Below, one piece after another: positions 10,701 to 61,060 of a stretch of 64,000 nt of DNA. The translations under genes and the position numbers were made by a program. Numbering within the stretch: position 1 is the first letter of the stretch; each line of letters starts with the position of its first letter. A model generated the notes under the pieces. That model saw nothing but the letters and a program-made list of their open reading frames with translations, had not been told where the DNA came from and made no database searches. The stretch is from an uncultured Phycisphaeraceae bacterium (GTDB lineage: Bacteria > Planctomycetota > Phycisphaerae > UBA1845), in the NCBI GenBank assembly GCA_964405925.1, contig CAYOQG010000001.1, positions 6,369 to 70,368 of the forward strand, given 5' to 3'.

Positions 10701-11000
10701 CTGTACGCCGACCCACACCATCCCGAAGTCCTCGTTGGCCGACGACGAGAGTTTGCGGACTCCGCGCGTCCCCTGCAAGGCCTCCTCGATGGGTGTACAG
10801 ATGGCCCGTTCCACGTCCTCGGGACTGGCCCCGGGGTAGGCAAGTTCCACGACGACGTGCTCAAGCGAAAACTCGGGATAAACCTCGCGCACCATGTGGC
10901 GGGTGGAGAGCAGCCCCCCAACGAGGATGCAGACCATGAGCAGTTCGACAACGACGGGATTGCGGACGCCCCCCGCGATGAGCCCGCGGAGTAGCTGCAT
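7791..11000 (-). CDS. RND-family efflux transporter permease (AcrB/CzcA superfamily)
   Basis: 1069 aa with a 12-TM architecture and two large periplasmic loops. Typical RND strings include GIPVSFAGALIIM, DDAIVIADSI and VVVNDALVLLDGINR. Confidence 0.95.
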   Translation of the reverse strand: MQLLRGLIAGGVRNPVVVELLMVCILVGGLLSTRHMVREVYPEFSLEHVVVELAYPGASPEDVERAICTPIEEALQGTRGVRKLSSSANEDFGMVWVGVQEDVDDLKTVLDEVRERVGQITTFPSEARQPVIREAVVPSEVVNVAVFGQLPERTLKQAAQQVRDDLLAFPEISQVSFSGARNDEIVIEVSEEALLAYDLSLTDVMAVVAKSSLDVPAGVIRTADEEFILRIAGQRYAAREYEELIIRERADAVVRLGQLATVREGFEETVIRGTFNGQPAVVVEVFKTPDEDTTEIARLVRAYVDDRQPSLPEQLHLSVWADSSHDIDSRIAMLVENGLWGICLVFATLTLFLRLRVAVWVAIGIPVSFAGALIIMHVYGETLNMISLFALIMVSGIIVDDAIVIADSIHARRRSGDTPELASIEGANRVALPVLGASITTIIAFIPLLYVVGVMGRFIHVLPVVVIAAIVASSVEAFGILPSHLCYRGGLVSDGKGGSPSRLRYKIDDLIDRIITGWYRPLFTLAMRYRLVTVGLAIAALLAVAGLVEGGRTPLILMPQEDGNILRARVRFPEGTPIATTEQTVERLEACARQLNEDPQLRPAAEGPLVRQIHSLIGEFAGFKTSRGNNLCEVRVELMPAEQRRMPMEKIIERWRESIGTIYDATQVTVGRQPRGPLDTPIEIRLLGNDLEDLEEAAERVQDRLRDFDGLYDIRSELVPGKRELRVTLDPDARSLGLTLDDVARQLRHGFYGGEAVQLQRGKELIKVRVRFPERERRSIADLEHVRIMTPKGDAVPFFEVAKVQWTRGYARIFHEDGKRRVGVMADVDDRRTNAEHVLQALEAGFFDDVVSDFDNMTYQLGGSRERIKESLDSLYRGFVVAILAIYAVLAALLRSYVQPLVILVSVPFGLVGVVMGHTLLGFDLTILSLFGAVALSGVVVNDALVLLDGINRVIREGQSVWEGVLAGAQLRFRAVTLTSITTVAGLLPILTESSSQAQTVKPMAVSLGFGLAFATVLTLFVVPAMYLIVNDLRRFLYWLRHGGSYPLAELVEEAARERTQATLLDARS

Positions 11001-11002
11001 GA

Positions 11003-12610
11003 CTAACCCCCTGCGCGCGCCAGGCTATACCGCCCCAGGATGGCGCTTAACGACGTGTGGACCGGGAATCGAAGATCGGGGATCGGAGATCGGAGATCGG
11101 GGAATGAAGATCGGGTTTCGGACTTCGTTCCCTCTTCCCTGTTCCCTGTTGCCTGTTGCCAAACCCGTGACAAGACCGCGACTCTGCCCGCGGCTTCCCG
11201 TAAGGATTCGGGAAAGACATCAGCCGTGATCTGATCGTCGCGGAGACGAACGTGCATCCCTGCCATCGGCTGCCGCAAGGGCGACACGACGACCAGCTCA
11301 CCCGGTCTCAGTTCGCACAACTCGGTACCACTTCGGCCGGTGTAATCAACAAGCACGCTGTCACCCAGCGAACGAAGCAGCGGCACCACCCTGCGGGTCA
11401 GACTGCCGAGACGCTCGTCCGCCGGGTCACTGGCGGGCTCGAACACGTATACCCAACTGTTGTTGTGGATCGCATGGCGCGGTACGAGCAAGGCCCCTTC
11501 GATCGGCTCCGCCGGCAAATCCACCCGACAGTGCATTCCGATACTCAGGGATGGTGTGGACTCTTCGCTGCCCACAGCAACCGTGGCGACCATGTCCACG
11601 TTGCGGACTTCGACGATCAAGCGAGCTGTCCGTGTCGCCTCGTCAACACGCTCGAACCGGGTGACGAATCCCCGCCAGGTGAATTCCTGGTCGTGCAGAC
11701 TCCATCGAACCTCGGCTTCAGGTCGTGGGCCGTCGGCGTCTTTTTGCAGGGCCTCCGGGCGGATGGCCTTGGCAAGCCACCTCAATTCTCGTGGATCGAT
11801 ACCCACCGGTACCTCGAACGCCGACATATCCGTCAACGTGGCGATGGAAAAGTGGGCGGTCACCGCCTGCGACGCGTACGCCGACACCACCTCGACCCTT
11901 GCGTCAAACGGGCAAAAGATCTTTGTATGGTCGCGCTCGTAGCACGCTTGCTTAAGCCCGGCGCGGGCGGCATCGAGTCGGGCCTCGGTCTCACGCCTGA
12001 CGTGGGGGATTATTTCCCGGCGGCTCTTCAACTCGATCAAGGCGTCGTTCTGTCGCAAGAACTTCTGATAGACAAGATCGACGTCACGCTGCGTCCCCAC
12101 CTGTTCGTCATCGTGCAAACGCTTCGAGGTCAAGTAGTCACGCTCGTCAATGGCGAGCAGCTTCTCCGCGTTGGCGATGCGTTCATCGAGGCTCGCAGAC
12201 TCCTGGTCCGTTCGATCGAGGGCAGCCTCCAGTTGATGGACCTCCGCCTCGACCTGGCGGACACGAGCTTCGTAAATCGTGGGGTCAACCTCGAAGAGTA
12301 GCTCACCTTCCGGCACGATTTTGCCGGTCGCCAGGTCGTCGTGAACTCGCACCAACTCCCCGCTCACCTGTGGCACGATCTTGACTTGACGCTTCGGGCG
12401 AACGGTTCCACGGCCGACGACTGGCGTTGCCTCGATCACAGGTATGATTGTCTGGACGGCCACTTCCGGAGTGCGGGCGAAGTGGTGGTGTTTGGGTGGT
12501 TCCGGCTTCGTGTGCACAAGCCACGCGTACGTCGCACCGCCAGCGATAACGATAGCGAGTGCGAGAACTACAGCAATGGCACGACGCGTTCCTTCTGTCG
12601 CCATGTTCAT
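11003..12610 (-). CDS. RND efflux periplasmic adaptor (membrane fusion protein, HlyD family) with a non-conserved, repeat-encoded C-terminal tail
   Basis: 535 aa with an N-terminal TM anchor (AIAVVLALAIVIAGGATYAWL), lipoyl, coiled-coil hairpin and beta-barrel regions. The stop lies 2 nt before the RND start. The last roughly 70 aa are low-complexity and encoded by heptanucleotide repeats. Confidence 0.85.
   Translation of the reverse strand: MNMATEGTRRAIAVVLALAIVIAGGATYAWLVHTKPEPPKHHHFARTPEVAVQTIIPVIEATPVVGRGTVRPKRQVKIVPQVSGELVRVHDDLATGKIVPEGELLFEVDPTIYEARVRQVEAEVHQLEAALDRTDQESASLDERIANAEKLLAIDERDYLTSKRLHDDEQVGTQRDVDLVYQKFLRQNDALIELKSRREIIPHVRRETEARLDAARAGLKQACYERDHTKIFCPFDARVEVVSAYASQAVTAHFSIATLTDMSAFEVPVGIDPRELRWLAKAIRPEALQKDADGPRPEAEVRWSLHDQEFTWRGFVTRFERVDEATRTARLIVEVRNVDMVATVAVGSEESTPSLSIGMHCRVDLPAEPIEGALLVPRHAIHNNSWVYVFEPASDPADERLGSLTRRVVPLLRSLGDSVLVDYTGRSGTELCELRPGELVVVSPLRQPMAGMHVRLRDDQITADVFPESLREAAGRVAVLSRVWQQATGNREEGTKSETRSSFPDLRSPIPDLRFPVHTSLSAILGRYSLARAGG
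11074..11115. repeat. Tandem heptanucleotide repeat GATCGG(G/A)
   Basis: Read directly: GATCGGG GATCGGA GATCGGA GATCGGG GAATGAA GATCGGG at 11074..11115. Confidence 0.9.
11127..11160. repeat. Second tandem heptanucleotide repeat (G/C)TT(C/G)CCT, about 4.9 units
   Basis: GTTCCCT CTTCCCT GTTCCCT GTTGCCT GTTGCC at 11127..11160, immediately next to the first tract. Confidence 0.9.
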
Positions 12611-35133: not shown

Positions 35134-36606
35134 CTACGCGGGCCGAGCATCCAGCACGTTTACGAGCTCGACGAAGTGGGCGCCTCGCTCGGCAAAGTTG
35201 GCATACGCGTCGAAACTCGGCGCGCCCGGTGAGAACAATACGGCATCGCCCCGCTTGGCCTCATTGCGGCCGAGCAGGACCCCTTCAGCGAGACCTTCAA
35301 CCTCATGGGCAACGACAGGGCGCTGGGCGTCGATGCGATCGAGAGTGGTCGCAGCTCCGCGGACCGCCCGTGCAAATGTAGCCCTCGATTCGCCGGTGCA
35401 GATCACCGCTCGGCACGACTTGGCGAGCGACGCGGCGCATACCTCCAGTGGGACGTCCTTCTTTTGCCCGCCAACGATGGCGATGATGGGCCGCTCAAGG
35501 GCGGTAAGGGCCCTCATCATCGTTACCGGTGAGGTCGATTTGGAATCGTTGTAGTAGTCCACACCGTCGATCGTTCGCACAAACTCCAGTCGGTGGGGCA
35601 GTCCCCTGAAGGTCCGCAGTACGCCACGCACTTCGGTCTCCGGTATACCTAGATGGCGGGCAACCGCCATCACACACGCGGCGTTGGCTTGGTTGTGTTC
35701 GCCGGGGACAAGCAGATCGGCTCGTGGATCGAGCGGTTGGACCCGCGTAACACGCGCCTCGTGCCGCACCGCCTGTCGCCGAATCATCCTGGCCGCCTCG
35801 GCATCAATCTCACCGACAAAGACGTGACTTTGGCAATGCAGGTCGCGGGCGATGTTCAGTTTCGTCGCCACATATCTGTCATATTCCCCATAGCGATCGA
35901 GATGATGCGGCGAGAGATTCGTGATCAAGGCGATCGGTGGTGCCCACTGAATGCGCGGCAAATCCTCGAGTTGGGCGCTGGACATCTCGAGGACGACCAA
36001 GTCGGTTGGGCGGATGCTGTTGAGGTCGGTCAGCAATGACCGACCGATGTTTCCACCCAGGTAGACGCCCGTCCAACCGGTACCGGCTGGCCGGCACTTG
36101 TCGAATACTTCCGCGAGCATCGCGCAGGTGGTGCTCTTACCGAACGTGCCCGTGACCCCGATAATCTCAGCCGGGCAACGCTCACAGAACAAGTTCATTT
36201 CGGTGCTCCAGGCGATTGAGCGGCTCTGGATAACGTGAAAGAACTCTGACTTGTCTTTGTTGACGGCCGGGTTGACGACGACGAAGTCGACCGCATCCAG
36301 ATCGCCCAGGTCGTGCCCACCGAGGTGGAACGTGAGGTCCAGGTCATGCAGCGAAGTCAGAGAATCCGCCAGCGCCTCGGGCCTCGCCTGATCAGTCACC
36401 GTGACAATCGCTCCCTGCTCCGCCAGCCATCGGGTGACGCCAACACCGCCTCCGAAGCGTCCCAGACCGACAACAAGCGCGCGACGCCCGGCTATCGAGC
36501 CCGGCCCACCACCGTTGTGGGGCACACGAAGCGACGTCGAGGCAGAAGACCGCACCATGCTGATAACCTCTCCCTGAGAAGGCACCCGTCTCGCTCTCGC
36601 GGGCAT
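35134..36606 (-). CDS. murD: UDP-N-acetylmuramoylalanine--D-glutamate ligase (canonical, three-domain)
   Basis: 490 aa. N-domain GLGRFGGGVGVTRWLAEQGAIVTVTD, P-loop GVTGTFGKSTT, and an intact C-terminal domain (FRGLPHRLEFV...YYNDSKSTSP). The true start is possibly the ATG at 36558. Confidence 0.9.
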   Translation of the reverse strand: MPARARRVPSQGEVISMVRSSASTSLRVPHNGGGPGSIAGRRALVVGLGRFGGGVGVTRWLAEQGAIVTVTDQARPEALADSLTSLHDLDLTFHLGGHDLGDLDAVDFVVVNPAVNKDKSEFFHVIQSRSIAWSTEMNLFCERCPAEIIGVTGTFGKSTTCAMLAEVFDKCRPAGTGWTGVYLGGNIGRSLLTDLNSIRPTDLVVLEMSSAQLEDLPRIQWAPPIALITNLSPHHLDRYGEYDRYVATKLNIARDLHCQSHVFVGEIDAEAARMIRRQAVRHEARVTRVQPLDPRADLLVPGEHNQANAACVMAVARHLGIPETEVRGVLRTFRGLPHRLEFVRTIDGVDYYNDSKSTSPVTMMRALTALERPIIAIVGGQKKDVPLEVCAASLAKSCRAVICTGESRATFARAVRGAATTLDRIDAQRPVVAHEVEGLAEGVLLGRNEAKRGDAVLFSPGAPSFDAYANFAERGAHFVELVNVLDARPA

Positions 36607-36975: not shown

Positions 36976-39900
36976 ATGCAAAGAGTACTTGTCGATTCGA
37001 TCCACCGCGGCAGGCGTCCCCGAAGGACCTCGGGCCTGATCAGTCTTGGCACGGCAGCCTGCGTTCTTACGATCTTGGCGCTTTCCGGATGCCCCACGTC
37101 GTCCCCGAACGGGGACGACAACGTCAACGGTAACGACAACGGAGGGACCGACGGCGATACCGGCGTGCTGGGAGGCAAGATCATCAGCTTCTCGACGTTT
37201 TTCAGCATGTCCGAGCTGGACCCCGCTGTGTCGGTCCTCTACGAGGTGACCGGCGGCCCCGACTCGATCGCTGGTTTCTACGTTCCCGTCGCCGATGCCA
37301 ACCCGGCTGCGGGTGAGACTGGGGATCGCGTGGTCGCGGCGACGTCCCTGCCCTCGACCGGTCCGAATAGGAGGTTCCAGTTCGATCCCCGGGTCGCCGG
37401 TGTTGGCTATTTCAAGGTGGGTATCCTTCTCGAGCGTGGTGATGAGACTGCGGAAGCCCTGAGCACGGGCGTCGTCCAGGTCGAGGGGCAACCAAGTCCC
37501 CGCTTCATCCGACCCGTCGCGGCTTTTGACGAGGTGCTCCAAGGGACGGAGGTCCCGGTAGCCTTCGACGCGGGTGATCCGGAGGGCGACGTTCAGTGGC
37601 GTCTGTTTTACCTGAGCGAGTCTGATTCGCAGAACAATCTCCCAGATGAGCTTGGGACACTCCTGGCCGCCGGTCGAGGGAACGTTGGCGGAGCGACGTT
37701 CTCTACGGCGGGGTTGGGGAGCGGTGACTATCAGCTTGGCCTATCCGCGACGGACAGCGGCTCGTCCGTGAGCGCGACCGTCGCCTCGGGTAACTTGGAT
37801 CGAATCATTACGGTTTTTGGACCGATCGTACGAGTGGTCGCCCAGAGCGAGATCCAGCCGCCCACCTTCCGGTTCACCGCACCCGGCAACAACGATGTCG
37901 CGCTGTTTCGAAACGAAGCGTTCACAATCCAGTTTTCCACAACGATCAACGAACCCGGGGCTAAGGCGTTAATCGAGTTGTTCTACGATAGCGACAACAG
38001 AATCACGAACGGATTTGCGAACACGATCGCACAGAACCTCGATGAGACGAGAACGTCGTTCCCGCTCCCGACTTCGGATATTCCCGAGGGAACATGGTGC
38101 ATCGGGGCAACAGTCATTACCGTGGGGGGAATCAGCGCCCCGATCACGCTCTACGCGAGCGGAAGCATTGAAATCGTGCGCAATCCCACGCTTACGGTCA
38201 CCGAGCCGGACAGTTCGCTTCCCGTCCCCCCGTCAACACCCGTGTCGATCGTGTGGGCGACAAACGCGCCAGAATCAGCGGGAACCGTCAGCGTGTTCGT
38301 GCGAACGCTGGGTACAGGAGAGAGCGCGACATTATTGTCTTCTGTGCCCCTGACCCAGACTTCGACGGTCTTCCAGGAAGAGACGTCGGGCTTATACGAG
38401 GTCACCGTTCGACTGGATTTCATTGATGCTACCCATCTCGAAAAGCAGGCGGGCGCCCTGATTCGCGTCTCCTCCCTGCCGAGAATCCTCTGGTTAGGAT
38501 CGCTTATCGATCCCGACCCGCCATTTGACGGGGCGATTTTTGGGGGTGTGAACTTCGAGGATAATGCGGGGTCAGCGCTGAGTGAAGCGGGGGACCTCGA
38601 TGGCGACGGCCATGGGGATTTCGTCATCGCTGCTCGTTATGGCAAGCCGTTCTTCCGCAATCCGTCAGGTATCGGTCAGGGTGAAGCCTATGTCATTTAC
38701 GGGGGCTCTGGCGCGGGCAGGCTGGCGGGTGAATACAACCTCAACTCCGTGGGGACCGAAACCCTCCGTGGGATAGCGTTGCCTGGCATTCCTACCGTCG
38801 ACAACACCGATGAGACCTATGGTCTGGATGGTGTTACGCTCATCCCGGACGTTGACGGGGACGGTCATGGCGAGCTGTTGTTCGGGTTCCCATTCGTCGA
38901 TTCTGCGGGGGGCAATGTGGGCCCGCTCGAGGCTGACGGCCAGTTCCGCCAGGGCGGTGTGGTCATGCTGAGCAGTAATAACAGTCTTCTGGCTGACCCG
39001 CCGATAACGGACGCGGTCATACACCTGTCAGCCGTTGGACAGACCTTCTCCGAGATGACCGTTACTCCAAGTGCCGCTAACTTGGCAGTCTTCGACGCAT
39101 GGCGGTTTGAGGGAACACAATGTGTCAACGGGACCGACGGGGTCGTCGATACGATCCACGGACCCTGTATCGGCTTTGTTTCGCTGCTTGCCCCGCCACT
39201 TTGGGAACAGGTGGGTTTTGAGATCTACACAGGTCCCGAGAGTGAGGGATTGTGCAGAACCTTCTACAACTTGGTCGGGTGTAACCAGAGTCCTGACCCG
39301 TTCTTCGAGTCGGACGCGGGTTCCGGCTTTTACCCCTCGGCAGCCGTTGCCCTGGAGCCGCGTGGGGCGCGGATCATAGGGCAGGGCGACGGTGAACGGT
39401 TCGGCATGGCGGTGACAGCCACGACTTCCCCTGATGACGGCGACCCGGGCGATCTTATCATCAGCGCTCCGGAGCGCAACGCGTCCAGCGCGTTCATCGA
39501 GGGGCTTACTGGGACTCTTTCCGACGCCGGTGTTGCGTATCTGGTCGATAACCGTTCGCTATGGTCGCGCGTTGGTAACGAGGTCCCACCAGCACCTTAC
39601 CAGTACGTGATGGGTGTCACCAGTCATTGCGGAGACAATCGCTCTGGCGGGCTGCAGGACGCCATCCGGATCGCCGGTGCCGAACGCGACAACATCCAGA
39701 ACGTCATCGGCGTGGGGGATTTCAACGGCGACGGGCGGAACGACTTTGCGGTGGGTGCACCCGGAGCCGGTGGCGGACAAGGGCGGGTATATGTCGCTTA
39801 CCGCAGAGACGAGGCGATCGAAGGGGATTTCCTCCTCAGCAAGCTTGAGCTCGATCCCGGGAACGCGGAGCGGCTGGCTGGAATGCTCATAGTGAGGTCC

Positions 39901-49430: not shown

Positions 49431-52400
49431 ATGTCTCTAACCAACACAACTTCGGCACTCATTAATGGTGTCAAAGCTCTGCCCCGCAAGATCTTTGGGA
49501 CTCGCAATGAGCGTTTGCTGAAGGTCTACCGGCGGCAGGTGGCGCCGGTCGGCGAGCTGGAAGCCGAAATCCGCCGCGATTACGATATGCGGTTGGCACG
49601 TCGACTCGAGGAAGAACACCTCGATGATCTTCCCGAAGAGGAACGCGCGTCCCGGCTTCGGGCGGTCCGCCTCGAGCTCAGTGGCGACCTCCGGCAACGC
49701 GCCGACAGGTTGCGTGAGCAAGTCAGCGGGATCATGCAGCCGCTGCATGATTGGTGGCAATCCCTTGACCCTGGTAACCGGGTCGAAGAATACTACAAGG
49801 ACGATTACCGCAAGAGAAATGCCAAGCTCATCGAGGATCTTGACGAGCAGGGCATCATGGCCGAGGTGTTCGCCGTGCTGCGTGAAGCCTCTCGCCGTGC
49901 CCAGGCCCACCGCCATTTCGATTGCCAGCTTATCGGCGGTCGTGTCCTCTTTGAGGGCCGAATCGCGGAGATGAAAACGGGCGAGGGCAAGACGATCGTC
50001 TGTCACCTGGCAGCGTTCGTCAACGTATTGTGCGGGCGCAAGGTCCATATCGTCACTGTCAACGACTACCTCGTTAAGCGTGACGCGGAGTTCGCGGCCC
50101 CGATCTTCGAGCTGTTTGGCGTCACCGTTGGCTACATCCAGGCGATGGTGGACCCCGGTGGACGCGAGGGCATTCGCCACCGTGCCTACAGTTGCGACAT
50201 CACTTATGGTACAAACAGCGAGTTCGGCTTCGATTACCTGCGTGACAATATGAAGACCCGCCTTGCGGAGCAGGTCCAGGGGCCGCTGGACTACGTCATC
50301 GTAGACGAGGTGGACTCGATCCTGATCGACGAGGCCCGAACACCGTTGATCATCTCTGGTCCCACCTCGGATGACGTCACACGATATCCGCGGGCCAACA
50401 AGGTGGCGGAAGAAATTGTCCGTCGACAGGCAACGTGGGATCGGAAAGTGGCCGCCACCGTCGCCAAGTTCGATGGGGACACCCACAACATCCCCAAACT
50501 CGAAGATGCCATGAATATCCTGGGATATAAGGAGAAGAAAGGGGCGGAACCGACTCGCAAGCAGCCCGCGCAGGCGTCGGATGACGAACCTCCCCAGGCG
50601 GATGACGGACCCCGGATGACGCTCGGGCCGGACTTCTTGATCGATGATCAGGTCGAGGCGATCCAAATCTATGAAAATGACATCCTGCGACTCCCACCCT
50701 CGGAGCAGTATCGGCGCTACTTCATCGTTCAGGCAGAGCGCAAGCAGGCCGGGATCACCCATGAGGGTGTGACGATCGCCCAGGAACTGCTCGACATCGG
50801 AAGCCTATATAGCGGTGACAACATGGAGTGGCCCCACCTGATCGAGAATGCCCTTCGTGCACATAAGGTCTACGAACGCGACAAGGATTACGTCGTCCAG
50901 GATGGTCAGGTGATCATCGTCGACCCGTTCACGGGCCGCCTGATGCACGGGCGGCAGTGGTCAGACGGTCTCCACCAAGCCGTCGAGGCGAAGGAGGGCG
51001 TCCGGGTCAAGGAGGAAACCCAAACACTCGCCACCATCACCATCCAGAACTTCGTCAAGCTCTACCCCCTCCGGGCGGGGATGACCGGTACTGCCATGAC
51101 CGAGGCGACCGAGTTCGACAAGATTTATAGACTCGATGTGGTGGAGATTCCCACGAACCGCCCCGTCAACCGCGTCGACCACAACGACAAGATGTACCGC
51201 GACACAGAGCAGAAATACACCGCGATTGTCGATGAAATTCACGAGGTGCATCGGCGTGGTCGACCGGCTGACCCATTTCTCCTTGCTGACGTATTAACGG
51301 CACTAAGAACCGTTCTTCAGAGACAGGGTGAGGACATCAGTCGAATCGATGAAACAATCCGGCAGTTCAACAACGCAGAGCTCAACGACCGCAAGGTCGT
51401 CCGGTTAATGCTCGAGACCTACGACGAAGTCATGGGCGATCTGGCTCATGGACGTCCGGTGTTGGTGGGCACCACCAGCGTCGAGAACTCGGAGAAGCTC
51501 TCCAGGTTATTGTCCCAACGGTATGGGATCGAACACGAGGTCCTAAACGCCAAGAACCACTCCCGCGAGGCTGAGATCGTCGCCAAGGCGGGCCATTGCT
51601 CCATTCCAACCAAGGGGGCGGACAAGACCTCCCGCGGCAACGTGACCATTGCCACGAACATGGCAGGTCGTGGAACTGACATCAAGCTGGGCACCGGTGT
51701 CGTCTACCCGAAGTGTCGCGTCCCCGATCCCTTGCCGGAAGGGGTAAAACCGAGCGAGCTGTATCCAACAGGGATCACCAAGTGCTGCATCAAGTGCGAG
51801 GACTATGACCCGGACACGAACTGCGGGCACTGCTTTAAGCCAAAGATCGATCCTCGCTTTCCCGAGCTTGGCCGCAAGGTTTGCACCATCAATGTCCCCT
51901 GCGGATTGCATATCATCGGGACCGAACGGCACGAAGCCCGACGCATCGACAACCAGCTCCGTGGTCGATCGGGCCGGCAAGGTGACCCGGGCTCCTCTCG
52001 CTTTTCGCTATCGCTACAGGATGACCTCCTCAAGCTCTTCATGCCGGATTGGATGCTCAAGATGATGGAGAAGCTCGGGTTCACCGACGGCTCCAGTTTG
52101 GAGGACAAACGGCTCACTAAGGGAATCGAGCGAGCACAACGCAAGGTCGAGGAGCGTAACTTCTCCACCCGCAAACATCTCCTCGAGTGGGACGAGCCGA
52201 TGGACTACCAGCGGAAGGAATTCTACACCGCTAGGCAGCGAATCCTCGAGGAACGCGATCTGCCCGGTTTGATCTTCGAGACCATCGACAACTCCATCAA
52301 CACGACACTCGATCAGTTCCTCAGCGGACAATACGACCGAACGTGCATCTGCGAATGGTGTCGCATCAACCTCGACCTGACCATCTCCGAAGACGACATC

Positions 52401-53684
52401 GACATCGACGATCTGGAATCAGCCACCAACAGCATCCGACAGAAAGCCATCGACGAGGCACACGACCAGATCCGGACTTCCCTCGGCGAGTACATCGACC
52501 CGGAGGAACCACCCAACAAGTGGGACCTCGGCGGCTTGCTGCACTGGGCCAAGCGGGCGTTCAACGTCTCTATGACTCAGAATCAGATGCGGAAGATGGA
52601 ACCGCAAGAAATCGAGGACGCCCTCCTGGAGGCGGCGAAGGCCCACTGTGAAAAGGTCGAACTTAGTGGTATATCCATCTATCTCGACCGCCAATACCCC
52701 TACCAGGCATTGGGCGAGTGGGCCCGGTCCAAGTTCAACATTGAGATCGACGTGGACGAACTCGTTGATACCCCTAAGCGTGAGGTGGCAAGCATGTTGC
52801 ACCAACGTGTCCGCGAAGCCTATCGCGAACGTGAGATCTGCTATCCGGCGGAATGGTGCGTTGAAAGCGCTTTCGGCGCGGAGGGGACGGATCACGCAGC
52901 CGCGGCTGACACCGTCATCGGCTGGGTTCGGTACAAATACCGGATCAATTGGAGGCTCGAAGAAGTCCAGAGCAAGTCGCCCAATGAACTGCGAGAACTA
53001 CTCGTGGCCTTAAACCGCGACTTCGCTGACCGCAAGCTCGAACAAGAGATTGATGAAAGCATCCAGGATAAGGACGAACAGGCCGTGCTCGAGTGGGCTC
53101 GCAAGCGCTTTGGCCCCGCCTGGAGTCAGCGCCGCTTCGAGCAAGGCAACGGTGATCTGCGCGGCGCCCTGCTCGCTCAAGGGCGGGAGATGCTACGGTG
53201 GGAACTGACCCGACTCGAGCAGTTCGTTTTGCTTCGGCTCTACGACCAAGCCTGGAAGGACCATCTGTTGGAGATGGATCACCTGAAGACTGCCATCATG
53301 CAGCGACCGCTCGGTGGTGATCAGACACACCCGCAAAGTCAGTTTGCGATCGAGGGTCGCGATCTGTTCACGCAAATGTGGGCACGCATCGCCACCCGAG
53401 TCACCGATATTATCTTCAAGGTGAAAGCCGTGGGCGGACCAGGGCAGGAAGCACCCCGAACGGATACCGCCCGACGCCTGATGGCGATGTCCTACGGCCA
53501 TGCCGACGCGACTGGAGCCGGTCTCGCCACCGCGAGTCGGGACCAAGAGGCAGCCATGCGGGCGCAAAACGTGGACGGCAAGGTCGAGACCATCCGACGC
53601 GAGCAACCTCGTGTCGGCCGCAACGCACCCTGCCCCTGCGGTAGCGGGAAGAAATACAAGCAATGCCATGGTAAAGGACAATAA
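49431..53684 (+). CDS. secA: Preprotein translocase ATPase SecA (unusually long, 1417 aa)
   Basis: Walker [73 protein letters not shown], and the C-terminal zinc finger [14 protein letters not shown]. It has large insertions relative to the roughly 900-aa SecA of E. coli. Confidence 0.97.
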
Positions 53685-53952: not shown

Positions 53953-53985
53953 GGTGGCATGGGTCCGCCCCAAGGGGACCCCTGT
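53953..53985. repeat. Intergenic repeat family 2, copy 2
   Basis: GGTGGCATGGGTCCGCCCCAAGGGGACCCCTGT. Compare 33773..33807. The GGGTCC/GGACCC stem is retained. Confidence 0.6.
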
Positions 53986-54220
53986 AGCTGCGGTTGATGA
54001 CCCGGTCTGTCGCAGGCAGGCCGTGGAAAGGCCCGCCGATCGCCAAGGCCCGGCTTCGCCAGACCGTGCCCCCCATTCGGATCCCAGTGCAGCATCTTAC
54101 CCACCAGGCCGACGCGGACCCTACGCGCCGTCATCCCGGAGGCGCGGTTTGAATTCCGAGATCCAGCGGAATAGAATGCGCCGGTGCCCTACCAGTATCT
54201 TGCACCGAGAGGGTAAGCAA

Positions 54221-55279
54221 ATGTCCATTCAAGGCAGCTTACGCCGTATTGCGATTGCGTCCCTGCCGCTCGGTGCCTTATCCGGTCTTTCCCGCGGCGC
54301 GACGGCGCCCAACAACGAACCAGGCAATCCACCTCGTCCCTCCCGCGGCGTGGCGCCACCTGCCGTGGCAGTGGATTCCGCCGTCGAACCGGAGCTCTTT
54401 GTTGCCGAGCCACGCCACGATCCGATTGTGGAGGAGACGGAGATTCAGGTTCCAAATGATGGACTCCTCGTGCTGGCGGCCAAGGCCACCGAGCTGGGCG
54501 ATGGCCTCTGGCGCTATGAGTACGCACTCGAGAACGACAGTTCCCTTCGCGCAGTGGGGTCGTTCAGCGTTTGCTTTTGGTGCGGGGACGTAGTGAACAT
54601 GGGATTCGCCGACGCAGATGCCCACTGTGGCGACCAATACAACTGCACCGATTGGACGCCCAACATTGCCCAGCGAGGAGTCCACTGGTCCACGCTGAGC
54701 TATGCGGTCAATCCCAACGCGAACGCCCTGCGCATCGGCAGAACGTACTATTATTGGTTCGACTCGCATGCGCCTCCCTGGACCGACAGGTCCAGGGCGC
54801 AGTTCGGCCTCTTCACACCGGGGGTCCCGCAGGAACTTTGGGCGAATACCCTCGGGCCTGGAGAGCCCTGCGCCACCGATGCCGACCACGACGGCGAAGG
54901 GGACTGTTTCGATTTCTGCCCGGGCACGCCAGCGAGCGCCTGCACATGCCAGGGGTTCGGGATGTGCTGCTGGGGCTGTACGGGCCCATGTGAAGACGAG
55001 TACCCCAATGACGAGTGCGTCGCGGACGGCGGTACGCCCGACGAGTGTGGTGACCCGCGATGTAAGAACGGCTGCCCGCTCCTGGACATGGATAACGACG
55101 GAGATCGCGATCTGGCAGACTTCGCTGAGTTTCAACGCTGCTTCAGCGGCGCGTCAGGGGATCCGGGATATGTGGCACCTACGCAGGAGTGCGTGAACCG
55201 GCTGGATATCGACGAAGATCAGGCAATCGGTTTGGGCGACTACAAGCAGTTGTTCGAGCTGGGCTTGCTCGGCGAATAG
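54221..55279 (+). CDS. Secreted Cys-rich protein with C-terminal dockerin-like module
   Basis: ATG at 54221 (GAGAGGG upstream) gives the signal-like MSIQGSLRRIAIASLPLGALSGLSRGA. The C-terminus has LLDMDNDGDRDLADFAEFQRCF ... LDIDEDQAIGLGDYKQLF paired Ca-loop motifs. The upstream part of ORF 53954.. is built from the repeat element. Confidence 0.65.
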   Translation: MSIQGSLRRIAIASLPLGALSGLSRGATAPNNEPGNPPRPSRGVAPPAVAVDSAVEPELFVAEPRHDPIVEETEIQVPNDGLLVLAAKATELGDGLWRYEYALENDSSLRAVGSFSVCFWCGDVVNMGFADADAHCGDQYNCTDWTPNIAQRGVHWSTLSYAVNPNANALRIGRTYYYWFDSHAPPWTDRSRAQFGLFTPGVPQELWANTLGPGEPCATDADHDGEGDCFDFCPGTPASACTCQGFGMCCWGCTGPCEDEYPNDECVADGGTPDECGDPRCKNGCPLLDMDNDGDRDLADFAEFQRCFSGASGDPGYVAPTQECVNRLDIDEDQAIGLGDYKQLFELGLLGE

Positions 55280-55394: not shown

Positions 55395-58300
55395 ATGCGA
55401 TCAGACAACTGGCAATTCTTCATTGACGTCGGTGGCACGTTCACCGACGTTGTCGCCCGAGGCCCCGACGGCGCGATTGTCACCCACAAACTTCTAAGTT
55501 CTGGGGCGACTCGTGGTGTGGTCGAGGGGCAGTCGCAGGGAACGTGTATAAGCGACCAGCAGCGTGCGGGTGATCCGGAGGGGTTCTGGGTCGGATATCG
55601 TGTCGGACTGATCAGCGAAGACTGCCACGGTTCTGTCGGCAAGCAAAGTAGCGACACCGAGGAGCAGGTTGCGCATGTAACGCGGTTCGAGACCGACACG
55701 GGACGACTTTGGCTTGATCGCCCTTTAACCGCGGTGGTGCCAGGACAGTCCGTCTATGAGCTGCGGAGTGAAGAAGAGGCTCCAGTGGTAGCCATTCGAT
55801 ACCTGATGGGACTGCGTCTGAACGACCCGATCGGTCCAATCGACCTCCGCCTGGGCACGACACGTGCGACGAATGCGTTACTCGAGCGCAAGGGTGCCAA
55901 GACCGCCTTCGTGACCACCAAAGGATTCGGCGACGTCCTGAAGATCGGGTACCAGGATCGCCCCGAGCTCTTCGTCCTCGACATCCACAAGCGCGATGAG
56001 CTGGCTGGCTGCGTGGTCGAGATCGATGAGCGTATCAACGCCACAGGGCAGGTGCTCCGGCGACCGGACGAGAGCGCCATCCGTCAGCGGCTCCAGAAGC
56101 TGCCGGAGTCGGGGATCGAAGCCCTGGCCATCTGCCTTCTGCATGCCCACCTGAACCCCGCTCACGAGGAGATCGTGGCGTCCGTCGCGGCGTCGGTGGG
56201 GTTCTCGCACGTCTCCGTGTCTTCGCGTGTTGCCCGAATGGAGAAGATCGTGCCACGTGGTGACACGACGGTTGTGGATGCCTACTTGGGACCGGTCATC
56301 AAAGACTACGTCGGAACGCTTCGTCGATCCCTCCCCGAGGCTCGTCTCAGACTTCTGACCAGCAACGGCGGATTGGTCGACGCGGACAGCACGGCAGGTA
56401 AGGACACGATCCTGAGCGGACCAGCCGGCGGTGTCGTTGGCTGCCGTCACGTTGCTCACCAGGCCGGTTTTCTCAAGACCATCGGGTTTGACATGGGCGG
56501 GACCAGCACGGACGTGTCACGGGTCGACGAACCACCGAATGATCTGGAATACCAGCACGAAACGGTCAAGGCCGGCGTCCGCATCATGGCACCCATGCTG
56601 GCCGTCGAAACCGTGGCAGCCGGCGGTGGGAGCATCTGCACGTTTGACGGTCAGAAGCTGGTCGTGGGACCCGAAAGCGCCGGCGCTGATCCGGGACCAG
56701 CCTGCTATGGCCGGGGTGGTCCACTGACGGTCACTGACATGAACCTCTATCTCGGGCGGATCGTCTCCCAGTACTTCCCCTTCCGACTCGATCGCCACGT
56801 CGTCGAGCGGAAGCTGACGGCACTTTGTGAGAAGGTCAATATAGACACGGGCTCCGACCTTCGCCTCGTCGACCTCGCCGAGGGGTTCATCAAGATCGCC
56901 AACGCCAACATGGCTGCCGCCATCAAGCGAATCTCGATTGCCAAAGGTTACGACGCTCGCGAGTACGCGCTGACTACCTTTGGAGGCGCGGGTGCCCAGC
57001 ACGCTTGTGCCATCGCCCGGGGACTTGGCATCTCGCGTGTTCTTTGTAGCCCCTTTGCTGGGGTCCTCAGTGCTGTCGGTATTGGTGTCGCGGACGTCAA
57101 ACGGATCGGTCAGCGCAGCGTCCACCATCGACTCGAGCCACAGGCCGATGTCGCACTCGACCCCAGGTTCGAGTCGCTCACCGCGGAGCTGCGTGAAGCT
57201 CTGATAGCCGATGGGACGCGAGCGGACGCTCTTTCACCACCAGTGCGGACGATGGACCTCTGCTATGTGGGACAAGCCATGCTCCTCACCGTGCCGGCGG
57301 AGCCTTTGGAGGAGGCACAGTCTCGATTCGAGACGCTTCACCGCCAGCTCTACGGCTACTGTCACGTGGATCGTGCGATTGAGATCCGTACCATCCGTGT
57401 CGAGCTGGCTGCGCGTACAGAGCATTTGCCCATTCAATGGACACCGGGTGGAACATCACAGGGATCAAGACCGCGGGTGACCACGATGATCCTGGACGGT
57501 AAGCCGACGACCGTTCCACTGTTTATCCGCGGTGAGCTCTACACCAATCAGCGCATTACCGGACCCGCTGTCATTATCGAGGACACTTCCACCATCGTCA
57601 TCGACCCGGGTTGGGAAGCCACCATCACCGAACATGGTGACGTTATACTGACAGACGCCCACACTGAAACCGGACAAGAGCGGATCGGCACCGATGTCGA
57701 CCCGATCCAGCTCGAGTTGTTCAATAACCAGTTTGCCTCCATCGCCGAGCAGATGGGAACGACGCTTCGCCGGACGGCACTCTCCGTAAATGTCAAGGAG
57801 CGACTCGATTTCTCTTGTGCGATCTTTACACCCGAAGGCGAGCTGGTCGCCAACGCCCCCCATATCCCCGTGCATCTCGGTGGTATGAGTGACTGCGTTA
57901 AGGCACTAATGGAGGACGTGGACACGTTGACACCCGGCGACGTCTTTATCACCAACGATCCTTATCGCGGCGGGTCGCATCTCAACGATGTCACGATCAT
58001 AACACCCGTCCATGATGACGCCGGTACGACACTTCTGTTTTTCGTCGCCAGTCGGGCGCATCACGCCGAGATCGGCGGAACCAGACCCGGGTCCATGCCC
58101 CCCGACTCGACGTCGCTCGCCCAGGAAGGCGTCGTCATTCGCGCCTTCCCGTGGATCCGCGGGGGAAAGCCTCAGCACGACCGGCTACGAGCTCTTTTGA
58201 CCGCCCCGCCCTACCCGTCGCGTGCCCCGGATGAGAACCTGGCCGACGTGTCTGCGCAAGCGGCAGCCAACCAGACCGGTGTGCGCGAACTCAAAGCCAT

Positions 58301-59285
58301 GATCGACAAGTATGGTCTCGACGTGGTCCACAGCTACATGCGGCATATCCGCGACGCGGCGGAGCAAAAAATGCGCCGTGCCCTTGCCAGACTGCCGGAT
58401 GGTGTGCGTGAGTTTCAGGATCGATTGGACGATGGATCGCCCATCCGATTGGCGCTGAGCATCCACGGCGACGAAGCGATGCTCGATTTCTCGGGAACGG
58501 GGGGCGTTTTGCCGGGTAATCTTAACGCCAACCGGGCGATCGTAACCAGTGCCGTTTTGTACTGTCTGCGATGTCTGATCGACGAAGATATTCCGCTAAA
58601 CGCTGGCGTTCTCGCACCAGTAAGGATTACACTGCCCGAGTGTTTGCTGAACCCGCCGGCGATGGCCGATCCCGCAAAGTGCGCCGCCATGGGAGGCGGA
58701 AACGTGGAGACCTCGCAACGGATCGTGGACTGCATCTTCGGAGCACTCGGGACCGTCGCCGCCAGCCAGGGAACGATGAACAACGTGTTGATTGGACATG
58801 AAGCACTTAGCTATTACGAAACCATCTGCGGTGGGGCGGGCGCGGGACCCGGATTCGACGGAGCCGACGCTGTACACACCCACATGACCAACACGCGCTT
58901 GACAGACCCAGAGGTGCTCGAAGCCCGTGTTCCCCTGCGACTCATTCGATTCGCCATCCGACACGGCTCAGGCGGAAAGGGCCGGTACCGCGGCGGTTGC
59001 GGGGTGGTACGTGAATTGGAGTTTATGGAACCATTGGAAGTGTCAATCATCAGTCAGCGTCGCACGACGTCACCCTACGGGCTGCAAGGCGGCGGCCACG
59101 GCCAACCAGGGCAAAACCTGCTGCTGCGACGAGGGGCAAACCGCGCAAAGGTGCTTTTGCCCACCGTTTTGGCAACCGTCTTTCCAGGTGACAGGCTTAC
59201 GATCGAAACGCCAGGCGGTGGTGGTTGGGGTACGCCTCTAATCAACACCGAATCCACCCACTGCGTGGGGGCGACTGCCCCATGA
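55395..59285 (+). CDS. Fused hydantoinase A / hydantoinase B family enzyme (ATP-dependent 5-oxoprolinase type, OPLAH-like)
   Basis: 1296 aa. The N-terminus [16 protein letters not shown] is the hydantoinase/oxoprolinase N-terminal signature. Also present are [12 protein letters not shown] and the hydantoinase B half ([20 protein letters not shown] ... [14 protein letters not shown] ... GGGWG). The length matches single-chain 5-oxoprolinases. Confidence 0.88.
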
Positions 59286-61060
59286 ACCCACGGATCACCT
59301 CGATTGAGAATCTGGTCGCCAGCGACCCCGGTGGACGCAATGTTTTTGGCCTGGTGCAGAGGGATCAGCTCCGACTGGCTGCCCAGTCGCTGAGGCTTGC
59401 CAGACGTGTTGCCATCGTAAGCGGGTTCTTCATCCGCGAAGCTGGTGCCGGTGAGACCGATGGTCCTCCTGGTGCGAAAGTGCTGGGCAACGCCCTTTCA
59501 TCGCTCGACATCGAGGTGGACTACATCACCGACGCCCCTAACGCACCGCTGTTTAAGGCCCTGGGCCTGAGACCCATCACCGACGTTCACGACTACCTGG
59601 ACAAGGCTCAACCAACGCACATAGTGTCGATCGAGCGGGTTGGTCGTGGGCATGACGGACGGTACCGCAACATGCGCGGACAGGACATCACCGACGTGAC
59701 CGCTCCCCTTGATGAGCTGTTTACAGAAGCCAGCCGGCGCGGTCTGACAACCATTGGCATCGGGGACGGCGGTAATGAGATCGGCATGGGCAAGGTCTTC
59801 CCCGACACGCTGTCTACCATTGAAAACGGGCGAACCATCGCTACTGTCGTCTCGACAGACTTTTGTATCGCGGCTGGCGTGTCCAACTGGGGTGCTTACG
59901 GTTTGACCGGCGCCTTGTCCGTCTTCGCAAGCCGCGATCTTCTGCCATCAGCGAAAGAGGCTGCCAGGGACATCTATCGGATTGTACGGGAGGGTAACGC
60001 CGTTGACGGTGTGACACACAAGAGCGAACCGACGATCGACGGTGTCGAGCTGGCAGCCAGCCTGCGAATGCTTGAGAGCATCCGGCGACATATCGCCCCC
60101 TCGCCTCTCGAGAGGGGAGAGCCGCTCATCGTTGGTGTGCTCGGTTACGGCAGAACGGGCCGGGCTGCCGCCGCCTTGCTTGCCGAGCACGGTCACCGCG
60201 TCTGCATCTCCGATGAAGGACCGGTCACACTCGAGCCAGGCACAATCGCAGCAGGGGTCGAAACGGGTGGACATAGCATTGAATTCCTCAGCGCGTGTGA
60301 CCTGATCGTAAGGAGCCCGGGGGTGCCGGCAGACAGCCCCATTCTGGATGCCCTTCATCGCCGAGGCATACCGGTGATCAGTGAATTGGAGCTCGGTTAT
60401 CAGCTTGGCGTCCAGACTTCACCTTGGCGACCGTCTCCGTTGATCGGCGTGACCGGCACGATTGGAAAACGAACGACGGTTCAATTGATGCAGCGGGTCT
60501 TTGCCTCCGCCCAGCGACCGATGAGGATCGGTGGAAACAGGGGCGAGCCGCTTTCTGCCCTTCTCCCCCAGCATCGGTCGGGAGGCCCCGTCGCCATCGC
60601 TGTATCCAGCTTTCAGTTGGAGACCGTCGTGCACTTCCGTCCGGACATCGCGATTTTGCTCAACGTGGACGAGGCCCATCTGGATCGCCACCGTTCGATC
60701 GCCGAGTACGTACGAATCAAGAGTCGGATTTTCATGAATCAAAACCCGGACGACGCCCTGATCCTGCCTTTCGATGATCCGCGCATGCGCATGCTGGCGC
60801 GTAAACACCACGGTCGGACGTTTTTCTTCTCCACGCGACAGGCGGTGGACCGCGGCGCGTGGCTCGTTGACGGAACCATCCGGTCGAATGTAGACGGAGC
60901 CATAGAAACAGTCGGCCCGGCCGATCCAACGTTCCCAGACAATGTGCTGGCAACCGTGATCGCGGCCCGACTCAGCGGGTTGGACGGGGGCCAAATCGCC
61001 CGGGCCATGGAAGACGAATCCCGAGCCACCGGGCCATCCGACCCGGATGCAGACGTGTAG
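59282..61060 (+). CDS. Fusion protein: N-terminal DUF4392 (D-glutamate-cyclase-associated domain) + MurD-type ligase N-terminal and central ATP-binding domains, lacking the Mur ligase C-terminal domain
   Basis: ATG at 59282 overlaps the upstream TGA (ATGA). The DUF4392-like part has GETDGPPGA, GIGDGGNEIGMG and AGVSNWGAYGL. The MurD-like part has VGVLGYGRTGRAAAALLAEHGHRVCISDEG, P-loop GVTGTIGKRTT and NVDEAHLDRH. The protein ends at the domain 2/3 boundary (VLATVIAARLSGLDGGQIARAM...) with no GLPHR / DSKxTN region. Confidence 0.8.
   Translation: MNPRITSIENLVASDPGGRNVFGLVQRDQLRLAAQSLRLARRVAIVSGFFIREAGAGETDGPPGAKVLGNALSSLDIEVDYITDAPNAPLFKALGLRPITDVHDYLDKAQPTHIVSIERVGRGHDGRYRNMRGQDITDVTAPLDELFTEASRRGLTTIGIGDGGNEIGMGKVFPDTLSTIENGRTIATVVSTDFCIAAGVSNWGAYGLTGALSVFASRDLLPSAKEAARDIYRIVREGNAVDGVTHKSEPTIDGVELAASLRMLESIRRHIAPSPLERGEPLIVGVLGYGRTGRAAAALLAEHGHRVCISDEGPVTLEPGTIAAGVETGGHSIEFLSACDLIVRSPGVPADSPILDALHRRGIPVISELELGYQLGVQTSPWRPSPLIGVTGTIGKRTTVQLMQRVFASAQRPMRIGGNRGEPLSALLPQHRSGGPVAIAVSSFQLETVVHFRPDIAILLNVDEAHLDRHRSIAEYVRIKSRIFMNQNPDDALILPFDDPRMRMLARKHHGRTFFFSTRQAVDRGAWLVDGTIRSNVDGAIETVGPADPTFPDNVLATVIAARLSGLDGGQIARAMEDESRATGPSDPDADV

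Follow-up and report, generated by a model that had tools for sequence, protein, structure and literature searches.

A gene in a 64,000-nucleotide stretch of DNA from an uncultured Phycisphaeraceae bacterium (contig CAYOQG010000001.1; the whole stretch is called the window below) encodes a protein in which a DUF4392 domain, which forms half of the human D-glutamate cyclase DGLUCY, is welded to a fragment of MurD, a cell-wall enzyme that consumes D-glutamate (D-Glu). The domains themselves are known; their combination is new. From sequence comparison and a structure model we propose, tentatively and with somewhat less than an even chance of being right, that DUF4392 serves as the catalytic unit of a D-Glu/5-oxoproline system and is coupled to the MurD-derived module, which would no longer ligate but would bind UDP-N-acetylmuramoyl-L-alanine (UDP-MurNAc-L-Ala, UMA), the acceptor of D-Glu. 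A Mur ligase that lost its own chemistry but was apparently retained for binding a precursor would be a clean case of enzyme recycling.

Architecture and distribution of the fusion

The presence of DUF4392 and MurD domains 1 and 2 in a single gene, noticed in the initial annotation, is found in agreement by Pfam, by the murD profile TIGR01087 and by Foldseek comparison of an AlphaFold2 (AF2) model with solved structures. PF14336 (the former DUF4392) matches over its full length (profile positions 1–291 of 291; E = 4.7e-76; 256.5 bits, gathering cut-off 27.9) and is followed by PF21799 (MurD-like_N, residues 286–366, E = 6.6e-9) and PF08245 (Mur_ligase_M, residues 390–522, E = 1.2e-17); the motifs GYGRTG, VTGTIGKRTT and DEAHLDRH are all present. 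TIGR01087 aligns with residues 284–575 at profile positions 2–297 of 441 (E = 2e-54), scoring 185.3 bits, below its curated cut-off of 211.95 bits, and the match stops 17 residues before the stop codon, the protein thus ending where domain 3 would start, as had been noted. Because only these 17 residues are left and the next gene begins 3 nt after the stop, there is no space for a hidden domain 3. The Pfam search gave no match to PF02875 (Mur_ligase_C) in the 592-residue protein, no cryptic Mur C-terminal domain was detected with Pfam and NCBIfam profiles, and no separate one is encoded by the gene that follows or by any other part of the window, the canonical MurD excepted. With PF02875 missing and the structural matches limited to domains 1 and 2, the protein falls short of the three-domain Mur architecture.

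The AF2 model, for which 120 orthologues were used, has high confidence, also across the junction (predicted local distance difference test score, pLDDT, 92.6; predicted template modelling score, pTM, 0.91). In Foldseek, whose alignments are sequential and cover one half of the protein each, it matched MurD crystal structures over about 305–320 columns corresponding to domains 1 and 2 only (E = 6e-23 and a root-mean-square deviation of 2.4 Å over 315 columns), and its N-terminal half matched the archaeal DUF4392 protein TON_0340 (target template modelling score 0.85–0.89, deviation of about 2 Å); no solved structure covering both halves was matched. The reading frame is continuous across the junction with zero frameshifts, and the linker there carries the motif SPLERG, whose S274 and P275 reach a conservation of at least 90% in an alignment of the 120 orthologues. 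The mechanical open reading frame (ORF) starts at a TTG (59225..61060, 611 residues). We place the real start at the ATG at 59282, because orthologue N-termini read MNPRI(T/A)SIENL and because this ATG overlaps the stop codon of the upstream gene as ATGA (ccATGAacc). The alignment with MurD, formerly assigned to residues 300–611, is sound; its numbering follows the TTG ORF and becomes 284–592 from the ATG.

All 120 best database matches (57–84% identity) have the architecture of DUF4392 plus MurD N-terminal and middle domains, and those with an organism name are Phycisphaerae or Planctomycetota. Altogether, the recurrence of the fusion, for which a survey of domain architectures had been suggested, extends to more than 120 orthologue clusters, mostly from Phycisphaerae metagenome-assembled genomes (MAGs), and at NCBI their members are named "glutamate cyclase domain-containing protein" or "DUF4392 domain-containing protein". 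When one genome of each species was scanned, the full fusion turned up at eight loci, six in Phycisphaerae, Phycisphaerales or Phycisphaera MAGs and two in unclassified uncultured bacteria, along with a copy of 50% identity in a MAG of Syntrophobacterales. Among 1.84 billion 50%-identity representatives, about four full-length clusters were found (P0077, P0121, P0122 and P0123), below which ranked stand-alone DUF4392 proteins and ordinary MurDs of 445–475 residues. In six of the 120 matches (P0002, P0003, P0011, P0012, P0020 and P0090; 864–945 residues), a PF07286 D-Glu cyclase domain (DUF1445) is further fused at the C terminus; the AF2 model of P0002, for which the alignment held six sequences only, has a pTM of 0.66 and a pLDDT below 50 in the DUF1445 part.

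The initial annotation had raised the doubts that the fusion might be artificial or missing from related genomes. An artefact of assembly or gene calling, such as a frameshift joining two genes, is extremely improbable and was rejected on the strength of the orthologue survey and the conserved linker: an identical architecture is present in more than 120 clusters across NCBI, JGI, ENA and Logan assemblies, on contigs of up to 5.67 Mb and on two complete MAG chromosomes, and the model is confident through the junction. CP070744.1 and CP070718.1 are examples of Phycisphaerae genomes, complete or nearly so, in which the fusion is present.

Although the C-terminal half is derived from MurD, it is no near paralogue of the host MurD, contrary to what the term "MurD paralogue" used before would imply. 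Since it is 39% identical to generic MurDs (167 bits) and only 29% identical to the host's own (72 bits), the module, judged from its sequence, is not a recent duplicate of host murD. Among orthologues its identity is 56–74%, similar to that of the neighbouring enzymes; per-domain identities were used instead of the ratio of nonsynonymous to synonymous substitution rates, synonymous sites being saturated at 60–75% amino acid identity.

Residue pattern of the MurD-derived module

For a residue census, 124 fusion modules were aligned with 32 canonical MurDs and numbered as E. coli MurD, whose residue roles, including the UMA contacts Thr16, Asp35, Gly73 and Asn138, are from PMC9780078. The UMA-side residues Gly14, Asp35, Ser71, Gly73, Gly137, Asn138, Ser159/160, Gln162 and Asn178 are kept in about 100% of the fusions: Asp or Glu at position 35 (Asp35 being equivalent to D311 of the query), Gly73 and Asn138 each occur in 124 of 124, Thr or Ser at position 16 in 96 of 124, and the GxGxxG motif and the SPG73 equivalent are likewise retained in about 100% of the modules. 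Retention at about 100% also applies to Gly114, Lys115 and Thr117 of the P-loop and to Asp185 and Arg186, while His183 (H466) and Lys198 (K480) are each found in 123 of 124 and Asn271 in 86%. Lys198 is reportedly the carbamylated lysine of MurD in the structures of Bertrand et al.

A different picture is given by the positions around the nucleotide and the metal ion Mg1. Position 116 is Ser or Thr in all 32 canonical MurDs versus Arg in 121 of the 124 fusions (motif GKRT). Glu157 is Glu in 32 of 32 versus Ala (121), Ser (2) or Thr (1), never Glu. Asp182 is Asp in 30 of 32 versus Ala in 102 of 124; His267, present in 30 of 32, is Pro or another residue, and Asn268, present in 32 of 32, is Phe, Tyr or His and never Asn. 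Arg302, Asp317 and Lys319 are gone with domain 3, to which all the D-Glu contacts (Thr321, Lys348, Ser415, Leu416 and Phe422) belong as well. Compared with ordinary MurD, therefore, the module shares the fold of domains 1 and 2, about 39% identity, the UMA contacts, the P-loop Lys, His183 and Lys198, whereas the fusion protein differs in the missing domain 3, the replacement of Glu157 and Asp182 by Ala and of Ser116 by Arg, the aromatic residue in place of Asn268 and the N-terminal DUF4392. As far as sequence conservation tells, strong selection acts on the module, specifically on the precursor side, and the remodelled site looks re-tuned, not decayed.

Two family members bear on the role of the module. 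The divergent fusion P0123 has GRAS as its P-loop, lacks the His183 and Lys198 equivalents and has Asp185 replaced, and it keeps an intact DUF4392 along with the GGN, SSxQLE and SPG motifs and the Asp35 equivalent (S310 and D311 of the query being invariant in that alignment). In P0129, a DUF4392 domain 58% identical to that of the query is joined straight to D-Glu cyclase, in the reverse of the mammalian DGLUCY order and with no MurD module in between. Because P0129 lacks the module, the MurD part appears to be an accessory, not a core, component of the DUF4392/DUF1445 chemistry, and because of the census together with P0123 and P0129, Mg·ATP-dependent ligation of the MurD type by the fusion protein is unlikely.

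Partners of the DUF4392 domain and a possible role

The DUF4392 domain is related to TON_0340 of Thermococcus onnurineus (126 bits, about 33% identity), a stand-alone archaeal protein of 268 residues (PDB 4dwz and 5gkx) described as a probable Mn2+-dependent phosphatase with a DHH/RecJ-like fold and weak activity on AMP (PMC5132392). Besides the fold, the two share the six acidic metal ligands: Glu59, Asp61, Glu115, Asp157, Glu161 and Asp246 of TON_0340 (PMC5132392) correspond to E58, D60, E118, D162, E166 and D253, which are invariant in 120 sequences. The cavity of DUF4392 is small and suited to one small molecule common to all homologues, including those of archaea and mammals (PMC5132392). 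In mouse DGLUCY (C14orf159 in mammals), DUF4392 is paired with DUF1445 and the enzyme converts D-Glu to 5-oxo-D-proline (PMC5339696). The same pair, with the same link to D-Glu and 5-oxo-D-proline, is encoded by neighbouring genes in the window and is fused in the six orthologues mentioned above; these, however, reverse the domain order and carry the MurD module between the two domains, and the window in addition has a co-transcribed lactamase of the OPLAH type.

Upstream of the fusion gene lies this 1296-residue fused hydantoinase A/B, and downstream, after a gap of 3 nt, the gene for DUF1445, the overlap of the lactamase and fusion genes at ATGA making them translationally coupled. The lactamase has the OPLAH-type layout (Hydant_A_N, Hydantoinase_A and Hydantoinase_B in about 1290 residues) and in this resembles 5-oxoprolinases, which comprise the eukaryote-type OPLAH and the prokaryotic PxpABC; unlike them, the solved protein that it matches best is annotated as an N-methylhydantoinase (1288 residues, 447 bits), followed by the complex 6yra, whose chains are deposited as "5-oxoprolinase" and "hydantoinase", and its best NCBIfam and PDB relatives, caprolactamase and N-methylhydantoinase, score below the cut-offs. 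The protein is a member of the ATP-dependent lactam/ketone-activating family; judged from the neighbouring genes, its substrate could plausibly be 5-oxoproline. The DUF1445 protein scores 396 bits with NF003969, above the cut-off, and 282 bits with PDB 3db9. The trio of lactamase, fusion and DUF1445 recurs at seven loci (L003–L006, L082, L084 and L086); the lactamase precedes the fusion in L002–L009, L082, L084, L085 and L086, and L085 has no adjacent DUF1445.

Among 78 loci with DUF4392, DUF1445 adjoins it in 32, in the order of mammalian DGLUCY, and an OPLAH-type neighbour occurs in Phycisphaerae only. In other bacteria DUF4392 is fused to a PxpB-type CT_C_D domain (P0213 and P0247) or, in a protein of 2571 residues (P0217), to an Asp/Glu/hydantoin racemase; PxpB (PF02682) is subunit B of 5-oxoprolinase. 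An alternative route to D-Glu was reportedly described by Feng and colleagues in 2017, in which MurD2 and MurL take part. In three MAGs, DUF4392, MurL and a full-length MurD-type ligase follow one another in the same operon (L031:9986-13724, Omnitrophota; L060:9962-13666, Rokubacteria; L078:9145-13539, Alphaproteobacteria, with DUF1445 upstream too), and the ligases of L031 and L078 have the L-Glu signature of MurD2, in which E. coli D182 is replaced by Glu and K348 by Arg (PMC8788868). The window resembles that pathway in tying a MurD-type protein to unconventional handling of D-Glu, but it differs in that MurL, which is unrelated to DUF4392, is found neither in the window nor in the Phycisphaerae loci examined and in that the full-length MurD has Lys, the D-Glu type, at K348 and His at D182, a residue implicated in the choice between D- and L-Glu, instead of Glu and Arg. 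Considering the fusion and the operon together, DUF4392 has been tied to MurD-type proteins twice independently. From these fusions and gene neighbourhoods (D-Glu cyclase, PxpB, Asp/Glu racemase, OPLAH and MurL–MurD2 as partners), the domain appears tied to D-Glu/5-oxoproline metabolism, in line with what the initial annotation had supposed.

In the proposed mechanism, catalysis would be carried out by the DUF4392 domain, with its intact acidic di-metal site (Mn2+/Mg2+) in a DHH/RecJ-like fold of the hydrolase type, while MurD domains 1 and 2, no longer acting as a ligase, would retain the UMA pocket and the site of His183 and carbamylated Lys198, with which UMA or a closely similar UDP-MurNAc derivative would be bound. 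We infer that this binding, by sensing or by tethering, could couple the activity of DUF4392, together with that of the OPLAH-type lactamase and the DUF1445 D-Glu cyclase, to the pool of peptidoglycan precursors and the demand for D-Glu. D-Glu would be converted by DUF1445/DUF4392 to 5-oxo-D-proline (step 1), whose ring would then be opened by the ATP-driven lactamase (step 2), and overall D-Glu would be salvaged as Glu or its pool would be buffered, the choice between the two, and with it the direction of flux, hinging on the stereospecificity of the lactamase and on the existence of a racemization step. As to the coupling, E. coli glutamate racemase MurI, which is activated by UMA (Ho et al. 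1995, as cited in PMC3037491), may be a precedent, by analogy only: the regulatory logic would be alike in that UMA controls a D-Glu-handling enzyme, whereas MurI is an unrelated protein whose activator binds to the racemase itself and here a recycled MurD fragment would do the binding. The compact two-domain body indicated by the pTM of the model is in favour of such coupling.

Several observations weigh against this proposal. The near-total retention of Lys115, Thr117, His183, Lys198 and Asn271 exceeds the apparent need of a pure UMA sensor and could point to continued binding or transfer of a nucleotide or phosphoryl group, and the replacements themselves (Arg397, Ala440 and the aromatic residue at position 268) are conserved; from this pattern, the module could still bind a phosphate-bearing ligand or a nucleotide. 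The activity known for TON_0340 is only a weak AMP phosphatase activity (PMC5132392). Finally, the fusion occurs with neither OPLAH nor DUF1445 nearby in L080, L010, L087 and L088, so that the operon model is incomplete; L080 is a 5.67-Mb Phycisphaerales chromosome (CP070744.1) in which the fusion follows secA, and three divergent members (L010, P0122 and P0123) are found on their own.

Among the alternatives, UDP-MurNAc-L-Ala(-Glu) may be the substrate and not the signal, held by the MurD module while DUF4392 attacks either its terminus or its phosphoanhydride; the reaction could be epimerization or exchange of the terminal Glu, by which D-Glu would enter the precursor independently of MurL and MurI, hydrolytic proofreading of a wrong precursor, or cleavage by a UDP-sugar phosphoesterase. 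Such a role would agree with the practically complete conservation of the UMA contacts and of the His183/Lys198 site, where the carboxylate that reacts is held in MurD, with the position of DUF4392 directly upstream of MurL–MurD2 in three phyla, with a phosphoesterase fold for which AMP was the best test substrate, with the housekeeping-like conservation and synteny beside secA in Phycisphaerae, and with the existence of lineages that have no MurI, including Chlamydia of the Planctomycetes–Verrucomicrobia–Chlamydiae (PVC) superphylum. It is nevertheless rather unlikely, considering that the small cavity is shared with archaea and mammals, which have no UDP-MurNAc (PMC5132392), that P0129 and most DUF4392 proteins have no MurD module, and that the window has no MurL and a MurD with the D-Glu-type Lys.

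The initial annotation had advanced a domain swap from which a new ligase or activating enzyme would have arisen, that is, an active ATP-dependent ligase or carboxylate activator in which DUF4392 takes the place of domain 3 for D-Glu or 5-oxoproline. This view is not supported, considering the remodelled Mg1-ATP site, the losses in P0123 and the absence of the module from P0129, and we regard it as distinctly improbable. Although Gly, Lys and Thr of the P-loop, His183, Lys198 and Asn271 are kept and the conserved Arg397 could replace Mg1, Glu157 is found in 32 of 32 canonical MurDs and in 0 of 124 fusions, and Ser116 has become Arg. In FolC-type ligases GKGS can stand where GK[ST] is usual, a point for ligase activity; the adenine and ribose contacts Arg302 and Asp317, and Lys319, are nonetheless missing, the TIGR01087 score is under the cut-off, and the P-loop Lys is gone from P0123, as are His183 and Lys198. 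Likewise, the polar-to-apolar changes E157A, D182A, N268F/Y and H267P on the face directed to ATP and domain 3 look as if another domain might pack there, and the high pTM points to a fixed domain arrangement, whereas DUF4392 precedes domain 1 rather than following domain 2. If instead the MurD-like half were a ligand-free pseudoenzyme, serving as a scaffold or oligomerization platform for DUF4392, DUF1445 and the lactamase, the lost catalytic residues, the further decay of P0123 and the physical complex suggested by the triple fusions would be explained; yet in a mere platform one would hardly expect Asp35, Gly73, Asn138, Gln162, His183 and Lys198 to be conserved at about 100% beside altered positions elsewhere in the active site, nor a degree of conservation (56–74% identity) equal to that of the neighbouring enzymes, and we consider it very unlikely.

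It is also conceivable, though unlikely, that the fusion, alone or with the lactamase and DUF1445, supplies D-Glu or installs it in peptidoglycan precursors as an analogue of MurI or MurL; the module could then hold UDP-MurNAc-L-Ala(-Glu) while the metal centre of DUF4392 performs a stereochemical or hydrolytic step. If this were true, it would provide a third route to D-Glu besides MurI/Dat and MurD2–MurL, help to explain the D-Glu source in bacteria devoid of MurI, including lineages of the PVC superphylum, and be the first physiological function for DUF4392, a domain conserved from archaea to humans. Returning to the coupling of DUF4392 to a UMA-binding module, the fusion and its partners narrow the role of this domain to the node of D-Glu, 5-oxoproline and peptidoglycan precursors and provide concrete candidate ligands. 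In the literature searched, no paper was found to connect Mur ligases with either DUF4392 or D-glutamate cyclase, nothing was found on murI in Phycisphaerae, and almost all work on DGLUCY consisted of expression studies.

Coordinates and further genes of the window and related loci

Table 1 Features of the fusion gene and of related genes, with positions counted from the first nucleotide of the window
Feature	Position	Strand	Basis
Fusion gene, 592 aa: DUF4392 plus MurD domains 1–2, without domain 3	59282..61060	+	Pfam, NCBIfam, AF2/Foldseek
DUF4392 / GLUCM-like_C domain, aa 8–268; probable catalytic unit with di-metal acidic site	59303..60085	+	PF14336
Linker, aa 269–283 (RHIAPSPLERGEPLI); SPLER motif conserved	60086..60130	+	Orthologue alignment
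MurD-type N-terminal (UDP-binding) domain, aa 284–378	60131..60415	+	PF21799; GxGxxG, D311 and SPG73 equivalent kept
Mur ligase central domain, aa 379–575; remodelled nucleotide/Mg1 site	60416..61006	+	PF08245, TIGR01087, residue census
P-loop VTGTIGKRTT; Lys kept, Arg397 in place of Walker Ser/Thr	60449..60478	+	Residue census
Ala440, aligned with Glu157, the Mg1 ligand of MurD	60599..60601	+	Residue census
NVDEAHLDRH...RIKSR; His183, Asp185, Arg186 and Lys198 equivalents kept, Asp182 replaced by Ala	60662..60739	+	Residue census
Fused hydantoinase A/B, 1296 aa; OPLAH-type ATP-dependent lactamase, 5-oxoprolinase-like	55395..59285	+	PF05378 + PF01968 + PF02538
DUF1445 / D-glutamate cyclase family, 270 aa	61064..61876	+	PF07286, E = 1e-67
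Canonical three-domain MurD	35134..36606	-	TIGR01087, 303.2 bits, profile 2–440

The canonical MurD of the window, encoded on the minus strand, has Glu157 and GKST as well as the GLPHR and DSKST motifs, the latter two as noticed before. It carries an N-terminal extension of about 40 residues, and its gene stands alone, outside any division and cell wall (dcw) cluster.

The genes of the window around the fusion follow the order secA, a 441-residue ORF, the hydantoinase A/B gene, the fusion and DUF1445. The synteny of secA with the fusion extends across Phycisphaerae (L080, L082, L085 and L086). SecA itself (49431..53684, plus strand) is unusually long, with 1417 residues and large insertions within the DEAD and P-loop domains. 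The 441-residue ORF (53954..55279, plus strand) has zero Pfam matches and is not present at the equivalent position in L082 or L086. Further upstream, on the plus strand, are a 1266-residue ORF rich in Gly/Asp repeats, FG-GAP-like by eye (36976..40776), and a 2514-residue ORF (41349..48893); in L080 and L082, a PKD-repeat protein of more than 2200 residues is encoded at the corresponding place upstream of secA. In L080 (11921-14262) the fusion is followed by a radical S-adenosylmethionine/SPASM protein and a 323-residue protein without Pfam matches.

The MurL homologues in the three operons described above (L078:10890-12215, L031:10855-12282 and L060:~10855-12234) share an invariant SGGKDS, the signature of PP-loop ATP-pyrophosphatases, which fits the reported ATP-to-AMP chemistry. 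A distant homology of MurL to DUF4392 was considered and rejected, the PP-loop motif marking a different superfamily. MurL gave zero Pfam matches, and a 2021 review states that it has no known conserved domains (PMC8788868). Omnitrophota and Rokubacteria are outside the taxa listed there for the MurD2/MurL pathway. A class-III aminotransferase (PF00202, about 444 residues) is encoded close to DUF4392 in 16 of the 78 loci, mostly directly downstream on the same strand and mostly in Rokubacteria/Methylomirabilota (L013, L015, L016, L020–L022, L024, L027, L028, L030, L038, L043, L049, L055, L057 and L067).

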